Of a stretch of DNA of 11,074 nucleotides, positions 1,163 through 11,066 are shown in pieces; position 1 is the first letter of the stretch, and every line of letters begins with the position of its first letter. Made by a program: the position numbers and the translations under genes. The DNA is taken from IMG/VR virus record IMGVR_UViG_2534682164_000010, one strand, 5' to 3'. The notes below the pieces were generated by a model. The model was not told where the DNA came from, ran no database searches, and saw nothing but the letters and a program-made list of their open reading frames with translations. This DNA comes from a virus (taxonomy: Duplodnaviria > Heunggongvirae > Uroviricota > Caudoviricetes).

Positions 1163-1266
1163 GGGAATACATTGAGATTTTCTACAATCGTCAGCGTCGT
1201 CACTCTCGTCTGGGGAATATCTCCCCGGCAGCCTTCAGGGAAAAATATCATCAGATGGCTGCTTAA
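1163..1266 (+). pseudogene. IS600 orfB 3' segment distal to the IS1 insertion (stop TAA 1264-1266)
   Basis: Codons from 1165 encode EYIEIFYNRQRRHSRLGNISPAAFREKYHQMAA*, identical to the C-terminus of the intact OrfB in copy 2. Confidence 0.85.
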
Positions 1267-1309
1267 AAAAAGAACAAATGGTAGTGTCCGCTATTGCCAG
1301 TACACCTCA

Positions 1310-1451
1310 GGGTATAAGGGGTTATGGCCACCGGACTACCAAACGGCTGCCAGCCCTCTTTCAGTTTATGTGTCAGCTTTTCCGCAAGATCTGACGGCGG
1401 CGCCGCCCTGACAACATCATAGTGTTTAAATGCCATGGTTCTTTCCACCAT
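1310..1451 (-). pseudogene. 5' fragment of a small phage-type gene (MAFKHYDVVRAAPPSDLAEKLTHKLKEGWQPFGSPVAITPYT...) truncated by the IS600 right end
   Basis: Minus-strand ORF 1263..1451 crosses the IS600 terminus at 1309/1310; only the first ~47 codons are non-IS. Its position downstream of Q, tRNAs and cargo suggests it belonged to the region before the lysis cassette. I cannot assign a product with confidence. Confidence 0.4.
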
Positions 1452-1696
1452 CTGAAAAATAATTCTTTAAAATACCTGACATGTAATACAGAAAAAACAC
1501 AAAACCATACCTTAAATAAAAACCTGATTATCAAGCAGATATGCATGGATAAACTACAAGACGAGATATAAACCACCCTGCATTTAAATAAACAATAAAC
1601 AACATCAGAAAAATAATTCTGCTCTATGGTTTACATTCAAAAATATCATTTATACTTTTCAGAACATCACCAGCAAGGCATAAACAAGGAAACTAA

Positions 1697-2032
1697 ATGA
1701 AGTGGATTGTGATTGATACAGTTATCCAGCCATCATGCGGAATATCTTTTTCAGTCATATGGAGTAAAATAAAATTAATAATCTGGTATCAATCGGATGC
1801 TTTCTTACCTCCTGAAAGTATATTTACACTGACTCACACAGGCATCATGCTCAATAACAAAGTGCTACCTGTAACCATTTACAACGTAGTACCATTCAAT
1901 AAAACATTCTGGAATTCAATCAAAAATAGCCAGGAATGCCCTACAAATACAGATAACGTATTGAATGAATGCTTTAATAACCGTTGCACTCTGCAAATAT
2001 GTCCTTATGGACTAAAACAACAAAGTCCATAA
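1697..2032 (+). CDS. hypothetical protein, 111 aa, AT-rich cargo ORF
   Basis: ATG preceded by AAGGAA about 8 nt upstream; possible -10 TATACT at 1651-1656; a perfect stem-loop follows at 2068-2089. By my reading about six of thirteen Ile codons are AUA. No family recognised. Confidence 0.4.
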
Positions 2033-2067
2033 GGAGTTTACTCACATCTGACAAAATCAATATAAAC

Positions 2068-2089
2068 AGCCCCTCCGGAGAGGGGCTGG
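2068..2089. terminator. perfect 9-bp stem / 4-nt loop hairpin CAGCCCCTC-CGGA-GAGGGGCTG between convergent ORFs
   Basis: Seen in sequence. On the minus strand it is followed by a U-rich tract (UUUAUAUUGAUUUU); on the plus strand it lies 36 bp after the stop of ORF 1697..2032. Compatible with a bidirectional intrinsic terminator. Confidence 0.5.
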
Positions 2090-2214
2090 AGAGTGGCGCT
2101 ATGTGCCATTGCATGGTGCCGGGTGCCTCCCGGTGAATTCAGTACCAGCACCTGAATCCGCGATTATCCCATATACCTACTCGCTGATTGCCCCTCCGCA
2201 CAGGGGGATTCACC

Positions 2215-2301
2215 ATGCCAGTTTCTTTTAACAAACTCCCCGCAAACCAGACAACAGTCAACCGCCTGAATTGTGAAGTATTTAAAAATTTCTCCCGCTA
2301 A
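2215..2301 (+). CDS. candidate mini-ORF, 28 aa (MPVSFNKLPANQTTVNRLNCEVFKNFSR)
   Basis: ATG at 2215 preceded by AGGGGGA about 8 nt upstream; stop TAA 2299-2301. Not supported by homology; could be chance. Confidence 0.15.
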   Translation: MPVSFNKLPANQTTVNRLNCEVFKNFSR

Positions 2302-2312
2302 CTGATACCCGG

Positions 2313-2399
2313 CTAACAGTCTGGCGTTTTCTTTTTCAGCAACGGGAAAGCAACAACCACCACACCCGCCACCAGCACACCGTCAGCCAGCACTGACAT
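2313..2399 (-). CDS. candidate small hydrophobic peptide, 28 aa (MSVLADGVLVAGVVVVAFPLLKKKTPDC)
   Basis: Minus-strand ATG at 2399, stop at 2313-2315. One hydrophobic stretch followed by KKK suggests a single-pass membrane peptide. Not supported by homology. Confidence 0.2.
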   Translation of the reverse strand: MSVLADGVLVAGVVVVAFPLLKKKTPDC

Positions 2400-2479
2400 T
2401 ATCCGGCTGCTGCAATGCCATTCACAAAAACAGTAAGCAATCACTTTTTACCGTAACAGGTGATAATCCAGATATGTAT

Positions 2480-2833
2480 CTACCCCAGATGAGTAATCCG
2501 AAGTTCATCCATACCACAGGTCCTGGCTATTCTGTTGTACTCCTGAACAAGAGCAAATAATTCTGAATTAGCAACCATGAACTCATCGCAAACCCTCTGT
2601 ATAGCATCACTATTCAGAATAATAACGTCTCTTCCCGAAAGACGATCAGGAGTACAGAACAAAACTGTCAAACGGCTGAAGGCCTTTGCTCGTGCTGCAT
2701 TGACTATATCAATACGCTGCCTAAGGATGAAACACCCCGACGCCTCATCAATATTCACTCTACCCACACCATATGAATGATAAATATTTAATGCTGAAAA
2801 AACCATTAGACCGTATAACAAACACTCAATCAA
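2480..2833 (-). CDS. hypothetical protein, 117 aa by ORF track (TTG start at 2833; first ATG gives 2480..2806)
   Basis: Open frame in AT-rich DNA just downstream (minus sense) of the phage tRNA genes. Contains several AUA and AGA/AGG codons by my reading. No family recognised. Confidence 0.35.
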   Translation of the reverse strand: MIECLLYGLMVFSALNIYHSYGVGRVNIDEASGCFILRQRIDIVNAARAKAFSRLTVLFCTPDRLSGRDVIILNSDAIQRVCDEFMVANSELFALVQEYNRIARTCGMDELRITHLG

Positions 2834-2943
2834 TACTTAACAGAACTTTTATTTTTGACAAACATAAAATATTTTCAACAATATCCTGAGCCAGGTATAT
2901 TTCAGTATAAGGCTCTGCCGGAAGGAATCTGGAAGAATGAATA

Positions 2944-3020
2944 TGGCGCGCTGTACTGGATTCGAACCAGTGACCGATTGCTTAGAAGGCAATTGCTCTG
3001 TCCGGCTGAGCTAACAACGC
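2944..3020 (-). tRNA. tRNA-Arg, anticodon UCU (77 nt including CCA)
   Basis: Reverse complement GCGTTGTTAGCTCAGCCGGACAGAGCAATTGCCTTCTAAGCAATCGGTCACTGGTTCGAATCCAGTACAGCGCGCCA folds as a cloverleaf: 7-bp acceptor stem with one G-U pair, anticodon loop CUUCUAA, T-arm ACTGG-TTCGAAT-CCAGT. Confidence 0.85.
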
Positions 3021-3120
3021 TGAATACCGATAATGGACCGCCATCGGGGACCCGCCCCCGCACCAACAACCCTGTTATCATGTCGTCTGCTCTTCCTGAT
3101 AAGCTAATGGCGGTTTGTGA

Positions 3121-3196
3121 TGGTGGCCCTTGCTGGATTTGAACCAGCGACCTGGCGATTATGAGTCGCTCGCTCTCACCACTGAGCTAAAGGGCC
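3121..3196 (-). tRNA. tRNA with CAU anticodon, most like tRNA-Ile2 (ileX/ileZ type), 76 nt including CCA
   Basis: Reverse complement GGCCCTTTAGCTCAGTGGTGAGAGCGAGCGACTCATAATCGCCAGGTCGCTGGTTCAAATCCAGCAAGGGCCACCA; perfect 7-bp acceptor stem; anticodon stem-loop nearly identical to recalled E. coli ileX. Ile2 versus Met cannot be settled from sequence alone. Confidence 0.8.
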
Positions 3197-3235
3197 GGGA
3201 GCAGAATAATAACGGTCCGTAATTAATTCCGCAAT

Positions 3236-3259
3236 AAAAAACCCGCTCGGCGGCGGGTT
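3236..3259 (-). terminator. intrinsic terminator (tR-prime-like) about 40 bp downstream of the Q stop
   Basis: Minus strand reads AACCCGC-CGCCGA-GCGGGTT followed by TTTTTTATT. Its position after Q matches the lambdoid late-operon arrangement. Confidence 0.6.
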
Positions 3260-3298
3260 GTAGAAACTCTTCTAACGTCAGGCATAAAACGCCCATAG

Positions 3299-4153
3299 TT
3301 ATGACGAATTTACCACAGATTCCGGAAAAATCAACCTAGTTACCTTTTTTAACTGCCGCTCAGCCCATGCTTCTTCAATATCAAACCGGGTCACCAGCGC
3401 ATCATAGAATTTCTTAACTGTTTTTTCCCATGACGCGCGTGTTATCTGGTTTGTCACCTCGCATATAGCATTAAATGCCTCCGTTGATGGTAGTCTTTCA
3501 TAGCCACGACCACCACAACGCTGGCAGTCTCTGATAACAGGCATACCACGTTTTACCGACTCTTCACGATGAATGGCGACACCACGCCCACGGCAATCCT
3601 TACAGGCGGTGGAAACCTCACCCTTTCCGCCACACTCCGGACAGGCAACTTTTACCACCTCCCTGACTTTTTTCCATTCTTCCCAGTAAGACGGATACAC
3701 ACCTTTCGTACACTTTGCCCATACCGGCGGCTTACCATCCGGATACTGGACCTTGTTTGTAAAAACTACGCTTTCAATAAATTTTTCCCCATAGCAACAA
3801 GGGCACTGCTTTTTACTCGCTGCGCTGCGGGCATAATCCTCAAAAGCGTACGAAGCCATAATGCGCATCACTACCGGTTTTATTTCTGCCGGAAGTTTTC
3901 TCAACGCCGCCACACGATCGCACCGACTGAGTGCATAATCTGCCAGTAATTCTGTTGCCCGCGCCCTGTCATTCATACTGATGCCCATTTTCCCCAGGAA
4001 CGCAGAAAACCCCATCTCAGCCCGATTCTGTGTCATGCCCTGCGCGGCCATCACATCAGTGATACTCAGCGCATCTTTTGACGTTGAGGCCGATGCATCG
4101 GTCAGGCAAGGGGATTTTGGGGAGTAGTATTTCGGTAAATCTTCCAGTTTCAT
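3299..4153 (-). CDS. phage late-gene antiterminator Q-like protein (284 aa)
   Basis: Sits directly after rusA and before a terminator and tRNA genes, the canonical Q position. Carries three CxxCxGxG zinc-finger-like repeats (CPECGGKG, CKDCRGRG, CQRCGGRG). N-terminus resembles long-form Q proteins of lambdoid prophages as I recall them. Start overlaps the rusA stop (ATGA). Confidence 0.65.
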   Translation of the reverse strand: MKLEDLPKYYSPKSPCLTDASASTSKDALSITDVMAAQGMTQNRAEMGFSAFLGKMGISMNDRARATELLADYALSRCDRVAALRKLPAEIKPVVMRIMASYAFEDYARSAASKKQCPCCYGEKFIESVVFTNKVQYPDGKPPVWAKCTKGVYPSYWEEWKKVREVVKVACPECGGKGEVSTACKDCRGRGVAIHREESVKRGMPVIRDCQRCGGRGYERLPSTEAFNAICEVTNQITRASWEKTVKKFYDALVTRFDIEEAWAERQLKKVTRLIFPESVVNSS

Positions 4154-4524
4154 TTTTTGACCTGCTCTTCATGCATTATGGGGTAAATCTTCACCCCCAG
4201 ACGTCCACCAGATACTGGCTGACCACGAACGATATTGATTTCATCAAACTGCTCATCGTCCATTAACACTCCCGCATGTGTCAGTGCATCCAGTGGTGCT
4301 TTCAGGATATTGTCCAGGTCACGACGGCGCTTATCCGGTGGCTCTGCAATAATCTTTATCGCCAGTCTTCCGGACAGGCTTAATTTCAGTCGCTGCTGAC
4401 GGACAATAAGCGCCACATCCCGGCGATAACGCTCACCGGCTTTTGATACAAAATATGTGTTGTCACGACGTCGCCAGTAAGTATTCACCGTCGGCGGATA
4501 AGGTAAAATAAACTCATGGCGCAT
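4150..4524 (-). CDS. rusA: RusA-family Holliday-junction resolvase (124 aa)
   Basis: Translation shares the conserved DxRRRDLDN, KAxxDALTxAG and GGRL motifs with recalled E. coli RusA. Confidence 0.85.
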   Translation of the reverse strand: MRHEFILPYPPTVNTYWRRRDNTYFVSKAGERYRRDVALIVRQQRLKLSLSGRLAIKIIAEPPDKRRRDLDNILKAPLDALTHAGVLMDDEQFDEINIVRGQPVSGGRLGVKIYPIMHEEQVKK

Positions 4525-4781
4525 CAGCGCAGCACCTCCTGCACCAGTTTTTCAAACTTTCCGACTCTGGTTTCCAGCTCTGCCACACAGTCCACCAGCT
4601 CATCTACTGCTTTCTGTGCGCGATGCTTCGCCTGCATCAGTTCCCGAAGCGCGGGTACCATATCTTTACGGATAGCGTCTTTTGTTATGCCCGTTTTTTC
4701 GAGTTGTTCAGCATGACGCAGCATTTCCTGCGCGTGTTTACGCAATTGTTCAGGGGTAAAAGTCATTGTCTGGTTGTTCAA
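4524..4781 (-). CDS. hypothetical phage nin-region protein, 85 aa, predicted helical
   Basis: Stop overlaps the rusA start by 1 nt (TGATG), suggesting translational coupling. No family recognised. Confidence 0.5.
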   Translation of the reverse strand: MNNQTMTFTPEQLRKHAQEMLRHAEQLEKTGITKDAIRKDMVPALRELMQAKHRAQKAVDELVDCVAELETRVGKFEKLVQEVLR

Positions 4782-4896
4782 AAGAAACGCTCCATCTTAC
4801 TGCTGTCAGTTCGTTTATTACTGTATCTGCGCGGATTGCCGGGCTTCATGGGAGTGGAAAGCACCCGTGCACTTTCCTGGTCCACAGGCAGAAAAT

Positions 4897-4901
4897 GTCC
4901 G
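4897..4901. repeat. IS2 target-site duplication GTCCG (left copy); right copy at 8251-8255
   Basis: Seen in sequence: identical 5-mer directly abuts both IS2 termini. IS2 is known to make 5-bp duplications. Confidence 0.8.
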
Positions 4902-4992
4902 TAGACTGGCCCCCTGAATCTCCAGACAACCAGTATCACTTAAATAAGTGATAGTCTTAATACTAGTTTTTAGACTAGTCATTGGAGTACAG

Positions 4993-5057
4993 ATGATTGA
5001 TGTCTTAGGGCCGGAGAAACGCAGACGGCGTACCACACAGGAAAAGATCGCAATTGT
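4993..5057 (+). pseudogene. insC: IS2 insC 5' fragment ([22 protein letters not shown]), runs into the IS21-family terminus
   Basis: First 22 codons match recalled InsC; the sequence diverges at 5058. Confidence 0.85.
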
Positions 5058-5115
5058 GTCAACGCCACGATGTTTGACCGTTATTTGCCATTTTCATGCC
5101 CGCTAAATACTTTCG

Positions 5116-7085
<1,970 letters not shown>

Positions 7086-7121
7086 GTTGATGTCCTTTCT
7101 GGTGTGAGAACCTTAAGGAAA

Positions 7122-7376
7122 CAACATGGTGTAGCAGCCAGCCAGTTATTTCTCTGGCGTAAGCAATACCAGGAAGGAAGTCTTACTGCTGTGGCCGCCG
7201 GAGAACAGGTTGTTCCTGCCTCTGAACTTGCTGCCGCCATGAAGCAGATTAAAGAACTCCAGCGCCTGCTCGGCAAGAAAACGATGGAAAATGAACTCCT
7301 CAAAGAAGCCGTTGAATATGGACGGGCAAAAAAGTGGATAGCGCACGCGCCCTTATTGCCCGGGGATGGGGAGTAA
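7122..7376 (+). pseudogene. insC: IS2 insC 3' fragment ([10 protein letters not shown]...PGDGE*, 84 codons)
   Basis: Matches the C-terminal 84 residues of recalled InsC. About 15 codons (QQSFEPGMTVSLVAR) are absent between the two fragments. Frameshift motif AAAAAAG at 7328-7334. Confidence 0.85.
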
Positions 7377-8239
7377 GCTTAGTCAGCCGTTGTCTCCGGG
7401 TGTCGCGTGCGCAGTTGCACGTCATTCTCAGACGAACCGATGACTGGATGGATGGCCGCCGCAGTCGTCACACTGATGATACGGATGTGCTTCTCCGTAT
7501 ACACCATGTTATCGGAGAGCTGCCCACGTATGGTTATCGTCGGGTATGGGCGCTGCTTCGCAGACAGGCAGAACTTGATGGTATGCCTGCGATCAATGCC
7601 AAACGTGTTTACCGGATCATGCGCCAGAATGCGCTGTTGCTTGAGCGAAAACCTGCTGTACCGCCATCGAAACGGGCACATACAGGCAGAGTGGCCGTGA
7701 AAGAAAGCAATCAGCGATGGTGCTCTGACGGGTTCGAGTTCTGCTGTGATAACGGAGAGAGACTGCGTGTCACGTTCGCGCTGGACTGCTGTGATCGTGA
7801 GGCACTGCACTGGGCGGTGACTACCGGCGGCTTCAACAGTGAAACAGTACAGGACGTCATGCTGGGAGCGGTGGAACGCCGCTTCGGCAACGATCTTCCG
7901 TCGTCTCCAGTGGAGTGGCTGACGGATAATGGTTCATGCTACCGGGCTAATGAAACACGCCAGTTCGCCCGGATGTTGGGACTTGAACCGAAGAACACGG
8001 CGGTGCGGAGTCCGGAGAGTAACGGAATAGCAGAGAGCTTCGTGAAAACGATAAAGCGTGACTACATCAGTATCATGCCCAAACCAGACGGGTTAACGGC
8101 AGCAAAGAACCTTGCAGAGGCGTTCGAGCATTATAACGAATGGCATCCGCATAGTGCGCTGGGTTATCGCTCGCCACGGGAATATCTGCGGCAGCGGGCT
8201 TGTAATGGGTTAAGTGATAACAGATGTCTGGAAATATAG
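7334..8239 (+). CDS. insD: IS2 InsD (OrfB, transposase catalytic domain; normally made as InsCD fusion)
   Basis: 301-aa ORF matching recalled IS2 InsD; stop lies inside the right terminal inverted repeat as expected. Confidence 0.9.
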
Positions 8240-8355
8240 GGGCAAATCCAGTCCGTTATAAAAACGCCGGTAAATCGTTCCCAGAGAACCGTGAGGTAGC
8301 CTGAGTTTAACGGACACTCCTTCCTGAAATAGAATGGCATCAGAAGGAGCTAATA

Positions 8356-8658
8356 ATGAGCAGAAAAACCCAACGTTACTCTAAAGAGTTCAAAGCCGAA
8401 GCTGTCAGAACGGTTCCTGAAAATCAACTTTCGATCAGTGAAGGCGCTTCCCGATTATCTCTTCCTGAAGGCACTTTAGGACAATGGGTTACCGCCGCCA
8501 GAAAAGGGCTCGGTACTCCTGGTTCCCGCACGGTGGCTGAACTGGAATCTGAAATTCTGCAACTGCGTAAGGCGTTAAATGAAGCTCGCCTTGAGCGAGA
8601 TATATTAAAAAAAGCAACAGCGTATTTTGCACAGGAGTCGCTGAAAAATACGCGTTAA
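8356..8658 (+). CDS. IS600 OrfA (HTH transposase subunit, 100 aa)
   Basis: Preceded by GGAG; contains slippery A7G run at 8599-8606 near its 3' end, typical of IS3-family programmed -1 frameshifting. Confidence 0.9.
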   Translation: MSRKTQRYSKEFKAEAVRTVPENQLSISEGASRLSLPEGTLGQWVTAARKGLGTPGSRTVAELESEILQLRKALNEARLERDILKKATAYFAQESLKNTR

Positions 8659-8694
8659 TCGAACAATGGGCGACAACAATTTCCCATTGAAGCG

Positions 8695-9513
8695 ATGTGT
8701 CAGGTATTTGGTGTATCCAGGAGCGGTTATTACAACTGGGTACAGCATGAACCCTCAGACAGAAAACAAAGTGATGAGCGGCTAAAACTGGAGATTAAGG
8801 TGGCACATATCCGCACTCGCGAAACATATGGAACCCGGCGGCTCCAGACGGAGCTGGCAGAGAATGGCATCATTGTTGGTCGTGACCGACTGGCACGTCT
8901 TCGTAAGGAGCTAAGGCTACGCTGTAAGCAGAAACGCAAGTTCAGAGCGACTACGAACTCGAACCACAATCTGCCAGTTGCGCCAAATCTGCTGAACCAG
9001 ACGTTCGCTCCTACAGCACCAAATCAGGTCTGGGTGGCGGACCTGACGTATGTTGCCACACAGGAGGGATGGTTGTACCTCGCTGGCATCAAAGATGTTT
9101 ATACGTGCGAAATTGTCGGCTACGCCATGGGAGAGCGCATGACAAAAGAGCTGACAGGTAAAGCCCTGTTTATGGCGCTCAGGAGCCAGCGCCCACCTGC
9201 CGGGCTAATCCACCACTCTGATCGAGGTTCACAGTACTGCGCATACGATTACCGGGTCATACAGGAGCAGTCTGGTCTGAAAACATCAATGTCGCGTAAA
9301 GGTAACTGTTACGACAACGCTCCGATGGAAAGCTTCTGGGGAACGCTGAAAAATGAGAGCCTGAGCCACTATCGTTTTAATAACCGGGATGAAGCCATCT
9401 CAGTAATACGGGAATACATTGAGATTTTCTACAATCGTCAGCGTCGTCACTCTCGTCTGGGGAATATCTCCCCGGCAGCCTTCAGGGAAAAATATCATCA
9501 GATGGCTGCTTAA
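8695..9513 (+). CDS. IS600 OrfB (DDE transposase catalytic domain, 272 aa from first ATG; natively fused to OrfA by frameshift)
   Basis: Contains the DDE-integrase core with HSDRGSQY and the C-terminal YNxxRxHSxLG-like motif. Confidence 0.9.
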   Translation: MCQVFGVSRSGYYNWVQHEPSDRKQSDERLKLEIKVAHIRTRETYGTRRLQTELAENGIIVGRDRLARLRKELRLRCKQKRKFRATTNSNHNLPVAPNLLNQTFAPTAPNQVWVADLTYVATQEGWLYLAGIKDVYTCEIVGYAMGERMTKELTGKALFMALRSQRPPAGLIHHSDRGSQYCAYDYRVIQEQSGLKTSMSRKGNCYDNAPMESFWGTLKNESLSHYRFNNRDEAISVIREYIEIFYNRQRRHSRLGNISPAAFREKYHQMAA

Positions 9514-9555
9514 AAAAGAACAAATGGTAGTGTCCGCTATTGCCAGTACACCTCA

Positions 9556-10493
9556 AGGCCACTGCGGAAGACGTGAAAAGCACGGGGAAAAACGCCGTCT
9601 TATCCGGTCAGCGTGCACAGGCAGCCGCAGGTTATGCCCGCGCAGCAGAACAGGCCAAAAATGACATTGATGCTGCGCTGACCGGCACTCTGAAAACGGC
9701 TAACCATCTGTCTGAAATCGCAGCAGCAGGCGAAAAGGCACAACAGAAGTCCCGGGATAATCTGGGGCTGAAAAGTGCGGCCACGATGGAAGCACAGAGC
9801 GACATTTACGACCGGACAAAAGGCCGTCTGGCGATACCCGGCGCATTCGGCTTTGGGTGTGCTTTTCTGCCTGAAGATGTTATCCGTTTTGACACTAAGA
9901 GTGATTTCCTGGCCTGGGTAAGGAATGCGCTGCCAGGTGAATATTCCGTTGCTGGCCCCTACGACATCATCATACCCGACACACGGTTTGAAGGGGTGCT
10001 CAGCATCCGGTGGACTGATGCACGCCCTGAGACAACAGAACCGCGGTACAGAGCCAAATCCCTTACTTTTTACGGCATTAACGGCCCCATTTATCACACC
10101 CGCTACTGCTACTGGCCCATATCCAGACTGACTGGCTGGGTGAAAATAAATATAACCACAGAAGATATTATTTACAGAATCGTGGCGAGCTCTGTCCGCA
10201 ACAGATGGGGAGACCCTGACATTGGCGGGCTGATTATTGCTGCGTACCAGGGAGAAGCTGACGGTGATAAAGTCATCAGACTTGTCAGGGGGCAGTCATA
10301 CAGAGGCTCACGACTGGGACCGGTGGGGATTTCAGTGCCCAGTACTCCCACCGGAACGTATATAGCATCCCCACAATTTTTCATTACGGGATGTTCAGAG
10401 CATTCATTACCGGGGTCATATTGCGCCCTGTCCGGGGTGCCGGATGCACATGTCTCTGGCGCAATGCCCGGGCTTTTTATTCGCACATCGTGA
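9556..10493 (+). pseudogene. phage tail-fibre-like gene, C-terminal ~312 codons, 5'-truncated by IS600
   Basis: Open frame begins exactly at the IS600 right end. The Ala/Gln/Lys-rich helical stretch followed by a Gly/Tyr-rich globular C-terminus resembles side tail fibres, and a putative assembly gene follows. Identification is by resemblance only. Confidence 0.45.
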
Positions 10494-10688: not shown

Positions 10689-11066
10689 GTGACACCAGAA
10701 ATGCTGGAAGCGGCCAGAGAGGCCAGGCGTCAGGAAATTGAAGCATGGCGCGCAGAACAGGAGGCGAAGCCGTTCACGTTTGAATGGAACGGTCGTATCT
10801 GGAATGCTGGTCCCGACTCACTGGGCCGCCTGTCCCCGGTAGTCATGCTGGCAAAATCTGTCACAGCACAAACACATATGGCGTGGAGCGATGCCGATAA
10901 TCAGCAGGTGAAACTGTCGATGCCGGAACTGGAAGAACTGGCGGCAGCAATGGTGCAGGCGCAGGTCGATCGCAACGATGAGATTTATCGCCGTCAGCGT
11001 GAAATGAAAGAGGAGCTGAGCGGTCTGGATGATTTGGCTTCAATTCGGGCGTTTGACGTTGAGTAA
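10689..11066 (+). CDS. putative tail-fibre assembly/chaperone protein; frame is open from 10515 and an in-frame ATG at 10497 is followed by TAA at 10512-10514
   Basis: Position immediately after the tail-fibre gene; ORF track start is a GTG at 10689. Length from 10497 to the stop would be 189 codons, typical of such proteins. Family not verifiable without a search. Confidence 0.4.
   Translation: MTPEMLEAAREARRQEIEAWRAEQEAKPFTFEWNGRIWNAGPDSLGRLSPVVMLAKSVTAQTHMAWSDADNQQVKLSMPELEELAAAMVQAQVDRNDEIYRRQREMKEELSGLDDLASIRAFDVE

Follow-up and report, generated by a model that had tools for sequence, protein, structure and literature searches.

What does a lambdoid prophage carry at the position where Shiga toxin (Stx) phages carry their toxin operon? 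The question is raised by an 11,074-nucleotide stretch of viral DNA (Caudoviricetes; IMG/VR record IMGVR_UViG_2534682164_000010), which is referred to as the window and in which a slot at positions 1452-2943 lies between phage tRNA genes, downstream of the late antiterminator gene Q, and a gene truncated by IS600. A preliminary description of the window reported two convergent open reading frames (ORFs) of no recognised family in this slot, at 1697-2032 on the plus strand and at 2480-2833 on the minus strand, separated by a hairpin-rich block. Both ORFs exist and converge. Our analysis indicates that this is very probably the late-operon cargo slot of a lambdoid prophage of the type found in the potB island of Escherichia coli CFT073, left as a remnant bounded by insertion sequences (IS) in a Shigella genome, and that it holds a known cassette. 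The four features of the slot are iraL, which encodes an anti-adaptor of RssB, on the plus strand, and a gene for a protein of 92 amino acids (aa), a DUF3927 gene and the gene for the small RNA (sRNA) STnc100 on the minus strand. These contents are known and widespread: the principal gene, iraL, was characterised experimentally in 2014, including in Shigella, and both the sRNA and the DUF have catalogue entries. The exception is the 92-aa protein, a real and common product that most annotations omit and that is uncharacterised.

Comparison with relatives supports this identification. In the potB-island prophage of CFT073, which looks complete from integrase to tail fibres, the same slot is about 99% identical and has the same feature order, and the whole slot of E. 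coli 042 is also about 99% identical. At least 80% of window positions 1200-3300 is present in 862 of 5426 complete E. coli genomes. A check against intact relatives had been proposed in the preliminary description, which named gene fragments or non-coding spacer as results that would argue against cargo; the CFT073 potB prophage was instead found to hold the same four features.

The order of genes was also compared with that of the Stx2 phage Lyz12581Vzw (NC_049917), in which Q is followed by tRNA(CAU), two tRNA-Arg genes, stxA, stxB, STnc100, nanS-p and the lysis genes. In the window, Q is followed by the tRNA genes, the 92-aa gene, the DUF3927 gene, STnc100, iraL (on the opposite strand) and a DUF1737 gene. 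The tRNA(CAU) of the window is identical at 76 of 76 positions to tRNA-Ile2 of NC_049917, and its tRNA-Arg(UCU) matches the argO-type tRNA of an Stx2 phage at all but 2 positions. The 3' part of STnc100 aligns nearly without mismatches with the copy located after stx2B in an Stx2 phage. Because the order, the tRNAs and STnc100 match, the 92-aa gene and the DUF3927 gene stand in place of stxAB, and the matching order places iraL, on the other strand, where nanS-p begins. The earlier designation of the slot as equivalent to that of stx is therefore correct as a statement of position, given the same tRNA(CAU) and the same STnc100 landmark in the Stx2 phage. No cargo of the Shiga toxin AB5 type was found in the slot: searches of Pfam, NCBIfam and PHROGs gave no toxin-family match for any ORF there.

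The iraL gene and its promoter

The plus-strand ORF at 1697-2032 encodes a 111-aa RssB anti-adaptor of the IraM family. Its product scored 162 bits against the NCBIfam IraM model NF007393, for which the cut-off is 121, with residues 1-110 covered, and the earlier statement that no family could be recognised for this ORF was thus mistaken. The product agrees with IraL of CFT073 (c1429, WP_000871291.1) at 110 of 111 residues, is 61% identical to IraM of E. coli K-12 over 107 residues, and matched the solved IraM structure (PDB 8twd) with an E value of 6e-31. In RefSeq, the counterpart in both E. coli 042 and CFT073 is WP_000871291.1. The exact sequence encoded in the window is present in NCBI as 'anti-adapter protein IraM [Shigella]', in a multispecies form, which makes Shigella the most likely source of the window. 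The iraL and iraM branches were reported to be non-overlapping (PMC4045071). By its sequence, with at least 95% identity to CFT073 iraL, the ORF is assigned to the iraL branch and not to the iraM branch.

A promoter is predicted directly upstream (1630-1664, plus strand), with a -35 element, TTTACA, at 1630-1635, a -10 element, TATACT, at 1651-1656, and a transcription start at A1664. These hexamers were read from the sequence; a simple promoter scan did not list the pair. The published 5' end of the CFT073 iraL transcript, obtained by rapid amplification of cDNA ends (5'-RACE) (ACATCACCAGCAAGGCATAAACAAGGAAACCA, PMC4045071), matches window positions 1664-1695 at 31 of 32 bases. Read in this way, iraL is a complete gene with a promoter of its own.

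IraL was reported to bind RssB and to stabilise RpoS in exponential phase (Hryckowian et al., mBio 2014, PMC4045071). According to the same study, deletion of iraL lowered the level of RpoS in log phase both in CFT073 and in Shigella sonnei, and iraL was enriched among Shigella and uropathogenic isolates (PMC4045071).

The minus-strand genes of the slot

The minus-strand ORF at 2480-2833 is, on the basis of its conservation, a real gene that had been over-extended: the best-supported model encodes 92 aa and begins at the GTG codon at 2758 (2480-2758), not at the TTG codon at 2833. The presence of a gene of unknown function, as first described, was thus upheld, and its length was not. Three lineages of the gene were compared, namely the type found in the window, a type located downstream of an AraC-family gene, and the type found in strain ETEC4079. 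All three share the GTG start equivalent to window position 2758, have exactly 92 codons without any indel, and are 57-63% identical at the protein level. The pairwise dN/dS values were 0.255-0.259 in the three comparisons, and changes at third codon positions were about twice as numerous as those at first or second positions. The extension 5' of GTG 2758 is out of frame in one lineage, and the 92-aa form is the one called by PGAP in ETEC4079. In more distant relatives of 91-106 aa, which show 21-40% identity, the start codon is an ATG that is accompanied by a Shine-Dalgarno sequence and lies 2-3 residues upstream of the equivalent start.

Database searches placed the 92-aa protein in PHROG 2873 (phrog_2873, E value 3.8e-70), a family of unknown function, and its exact sequence is present in NCBI and UniProt as a hypothetical protein (A0AAU8W454_SHISO, WP_001017777.1). 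The description of this ORF as unrecognised therefore holds for its function and does not hold for the protein itself, which PHROGs and NCBI already contained. No match to the 92-aa protein was obtained in Pfam, NCBIfam or PADLOC, and its PHROG matches were only to families of unknown function. A profile search of 1.84 billion representative sequences returned only 20 relatives (representatives at 50% identity), all of them short and unannotated.

The gene is present in 1314 of the 5426 complete E. coli genomes, about a quarter; carriers include CFT073, ST131 strains, enteropathogenic E. coli (EPEC) E2348/69 and O104:H4, and the gene is also found in Shigella. In 38 of 40 records sampled down the ranking of the 1314 carriers, no RefSeq feature lies under the match. 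When 50,697 phage genomes were searched with the protein by tblastn, only phage mEp460_ev081 matched, and it carries the gene without annotation. The supplement of a CFT073 RNA-seq study lists iraL (c1429), and the 92-aa gene, being unannotated, is absent from that list. All readable contexts of the homologues are prophages, with the gene located downstream of Q and, where present, of tRNA genes; four such contexts were found besides that of the window.

The AlphaFold model of the 92-aa protein (pLDDT 85) consists of a helix, a short beta-hairpin and a second helix. The protein is mildly acidic (pI 5.7) and has no membrane segment. A weak profile match to the N-terminal helix of GapR/UPF0335 (E value 0.05-0.25 over the first 47 positions) was judged to be due to chance, and this lead was rejected because the protein is acidic, has no match to Pfam DUF2312 and does not yield GapR among its fold matches. 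In the lineage associated with the AraC-family gene, which has 60-80% DNA identity and was found in 128 genomes, the homologue lies 89 nt downstream of that gene, which encodes 241 aa (L004 3969-4694 and L012 5322-6047 in the loci compared). Another database homologue, P0017, is joined to an IS end whose sequence also occurs at window positions 4818-5036.

Codon use differs between the two ORFs. The 92-aa gene contains three AUA codons and five AGA or AGG codons. In iraL, six of 13 isoleucine codons are AUA, neither AGA nor AGG occurs, and the sole arginine codon is CGT. The claim that both ORFs use AUA and AGA/AGG codons thus applies in full to the 92-aa gene and only as regards AUA to iraL.

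The DUF3927 gene (2313-2444, minus strand) lies 35 nt beyond the 92-aa gene. It has a GTG start and encodes a small hydrophobic protein of 43 aa that scored 95.6 bits against Pfam PF13064, for which the cut-off is 25. The product has a Gravy value of 0.95 and consists of a hydrophobic stretch followed by KKK; RefSeq annotates WP_000562553.1 at the equivalent position in 042 and CFT073. DUF3927 is matched by PHROG 1470, a family that bears the label 'TciB-like inhibition of cell division or resistance to colicin', and a literature search for TciB or DUF3927 and for the old CFT073 tag c1428 gave no relevant results. In the other lineages examined, linkage of the 92-aa gene to a DUF3927 gene was not found.

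The gene for the sRNA STnc100 (2058-2247, minus strand) was identified by a full-length match to the Rfam covariance model RF02076 (model positions 1-206), with a score of 132.4 bits against a gathering score of 47. It ends in an intrinsic terminator, a hairpin of 9 pairs at 2067-2088 followed by a T-rich tail. The minimum-free-energy fold of this stretch gave z = -1.6, a stability that is not unusual for its composition, and the identification was accordingly based on the Rfam model and not on fold energy. The interval at 2033-2479 that had been described as a hairpin-rich block consists of this known sRNA with its terminator, together with the DUF3927 gene; neither had been listed in the preliminary description. 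STnc100 is a described prophage sRNA that is related to PasD and is common near the cargo of Stx phages; a reported location is 75 nt downstream of stx2B. It was detected by reverse transcription PCR in vesicles of Shiga toxin-producing E. coli (PMC12370729).

STnc100 recurs in the cargo slot downstream of Q and looks like a repeated terminator or junction element for the exchange of cargo modules. In E. coli O43 RM10042 (L012), four tandem copies about 260 nt apart (3686-4665) are located between a homologue of the 92-aa gene and nanS-p, and a fifth copy is found further upstream (6424-6636). Two copies each are present in other prophages, at 3752-3940 and 4216-4409 of L003 and at 5352-5547 and 5612-5718 of L004. 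In 042 and CFT073, RefSeq annotates a partial 'hypothetical protein' pseudogene at the equivalent of 2103-2231 on the plus strand, which is probably an annotation artefact because the STnc100 match on the other strand contains it completely.

Proposed expression of the cassette and alternative explanations

In the lysogen, iraL would be expressed from a sigma-70 promoter of its own, in the opposite direction to phage late transcription. IraL would sequester the adaptor RssB, RpoS would then not be handed over to ClpXP, and RpoS would accumulate in growing cells. We infer this mechanism, which was shown in CFT073 and S. sonnei, for the present locus because the protein and the promoter are nearly identical. 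On the minus strand, Q-modified late transcription would read into the 92-aa gene, the DUF3927 gene and STnc100, and the STnc100 terminator would close the unit. Such read-through is suggested by position, since these genes follow Q and a terminator on the strand of the late transcript, in the manner of stx; the genes may in addition be expressed from separate weak promoters. The 92-aa protein would be a small, soluble cytoplasmic factor that binds another protein via an antiparallel coiled-coil hairpin, although action through such coiled-coil binding is a tentative guess. It is rather unlikely that the protein is a so far overlooked lysogenic-conversion factor directed at a specific host target, such as a new small protein that binds a regulator or modulates proteolysis alongside iraL.

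Several observations weigh against the favoured explanation of the slot. The single residue that distinguishes the IraL of the window from that of CFT073 is S74 instead of L74, and two base changes relative to CFT073 adjoin the iraL start site and lie in the 5' untranslated region. The prophage is a remnant, with IS21-family, IS2 and IS600 elements beyond rusA and orf85; because the early region was replaced by IS elements, it is doubtful that Q is induced in the source strain, and the minus-strand genes may have lost their Q-dependent expression. Fold searches with the model of the 92-aa protein returned generic helical hairpins only, and no specific partner is supported.

Alternatively, the ORF at 2480-2833 might be no gene at all: the tRNA genes and the DUF3927 gene could be separated by a non-coding leader or spacer that happens to be open in this frame. 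The 92-aa frame does not start with ATG, its ribosome-binding site is weak, and it belongs to no Pfam or NCBIfam family and is without a RefSeq feature in nearly all sampled records (38 of 40), as it is in mEp460_ev081. Such a frame, however, would not be expected to keep 92 codons without an indel in three lineages, with dN/dS of 0.26 and doubled third-position changes, and the ATG and Shine-Dalgarno sequence of the distant relatives, the PGAP call in ETEC4079 and the confident AlphaFold model (pLDDT 85) also argue for a protein, so that this alternative is considered unlikely.

A different function for the gene pair is conceivable, given that late-region slots of prophages often carry defence or exclusion genes. 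The 92-aa protein and DUF3927 could form a two-part abortive-infection or toxin-antidote pair that acts in anti-phage defence or superinfection exclusion, as might be suggested by a gene for a soluble protein that is followed, 35 nt on, by a gene for a small hydrophobic peptide, and by the TciB-like label that PHROG 1470 gives to DUF3927. Yet IraL, the 92-aa protein and DUF3927 all remained without a match in PADLOC even at E = 1, and the pairing is absent from the other lineages examined; a defence pair is thus quite improbable. Even less credit is given to a role of the 92-aa protein as partner or anti-activator of a transcription factor, of the prophage AraC type or another, in the way that TraM acts on TraR; this idea draws on the AraC-family gene found 89 nt upstream in one lineage (128 genomes) and on the occurrence of the anti-activator TraM among the helical-hairpin fold matches. 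The explanation that we favour remains that of a known cargo cassette with iraL as its principal gene.

The retention of a 3.5-kb fragment in a Shigella genome riddled with IS elements fits selection for iraL. For the 92-aa gene, the analysis shows a gene under clear purifying selection that occurs in 1314 of 5426 complete E. coli genomes and is left out by most annotations. The slot can be aligned with that of stx feature by feature, STnc100 serving as the common landmark, and this helps in reading the cargo regions of other prophages.

Surroundings of the slot and comparison with known systems

The minus-strand order RusA, Q, terminator, tRNA(CAU) and tRNA-Arg(UCU) given in the preliminary description was confirmed by Pfam, PHROG and ARAGORN searches and by annotated relatives. 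The RusA gene (4150-4524, minus strand) has nearly identical counterparts annotated as RusA in strains 042 and CFT073. Q (3299-4153, minus strand), which encodes a late antiterminator of 284 aa, matched Pfam Antiterm (E value 7e-55) and phrog_127 (E value 1e-110). In the interval between Q and the tRNA genes, a putative terminator resembling tR' was found at 3240-3259 on the minus strand, with a 7-pair stem followed by TTTTATT. The tRNA with anticodon CAU (3121-3196, minus strand) was called by ARAGORN, is of the phage ileZ (Ile2) type, and is annotated as tRNA-Ile in 042 and CFT073. The tRNA-Arg with anticodon UCU (2944-3020, minus strand) was called by ARAGORN and scored 68 bits in Rfam. The spacer between the two tRNA genes (3021-3120) can be aligned to the second of three tRNA genes in the prophage of CFT073, a tRNA-Arg, but its centre has diverged; neither ARAGORN nor Rfam called a tRNA in it, and it is probably a decayed third phage tRNA. 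Located 5' of rusA, and overlapping its start by one base, is orf85 (4524-4781, minus strand), an ORF of 85 aa that looks like a coiled coil by eye and gave only weak, non-significant matches in PADLOC.

At the left edge of the slot, the gene truncated by IS600 that had been described was found and identified as a DUF1737 gene, of which 48 codons of the 5' part are left (1307-1451, minus strand; Pfam DUF1737, E value 1.5e-15; phrog_2036, residues 1-48). It is severed by the right end of IS600 at 1306/1307, and homology to 042 and CFT073 begins at 1307. The name IS600 follows the RefSeq annotation of a copy that is 99.5% identical.

The slot was described as AT-rich, which is true overall (39.3% GC for 1452-2943 versus 50.0% for the whole window), but its composition is uneven, with 32% GC at 1452-2057, 55% at 2058-2247, 46% at 2248-2479 and 39% at 2480-2943.

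As a whole, the window is an IS mosaic around a short piece of a lambdoid prophage. Two IS600 copies in the same orientation (1-1306 and 8345-9560) bracket the prophage remnant and other IS elements, and the left copy is interrupted by IS1. The interval 4790-8350, directly beyond orf85, holds an IS2 that is split by an IS21-family element, and the latter carries istA (5913-7085) and istB (5116-5916). The plus-strand ORFs at 9540-10493 and 10689-11066 resemble, by eye, the end of a side tail fibre gene and a tail fibre assembly gene; they may be part of this prophage remnant or of a different one.

Among known systems, the iraL locus of CFT073 and S. sonnei (PMC4045071) is like that of the window in its mRNA 5' end, in its flanking DUF3927, STnc100 and DUF1737 features and in its prophage slot. 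It differs in that the prophage of the window was reduced to about 3.5 kb by IS elements, whereas the potB prophage of CFT073 looks complete. IraM of K-12 (b1160; PDB 8twd) belongs to the same family as the IraL of the window; unlike iraL, its gene is located beside e14 and is regulated by Mg2+ starvation, and it contacts RssB in another mode than IraL does (PMC4045071). The PHROG 2873 and NCBI 'hypothetical protein' entries contain the exact 92-aa sequence of the window, with no function recorded in the sources searched. STnc100 is present in two to five copies in some prophages, whereas the window has a single copy. The Stx2 phages (NC_049917 and 933W-like phages) are like the window in that STnc100 is followed by a gene opening with a DUF1737 domain and then by the lysis genes. 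The cargo itself is different: in place of stxA and stxB the window has the 92-aa protein and DUF3927, and iraL replaces most of nanS-p.

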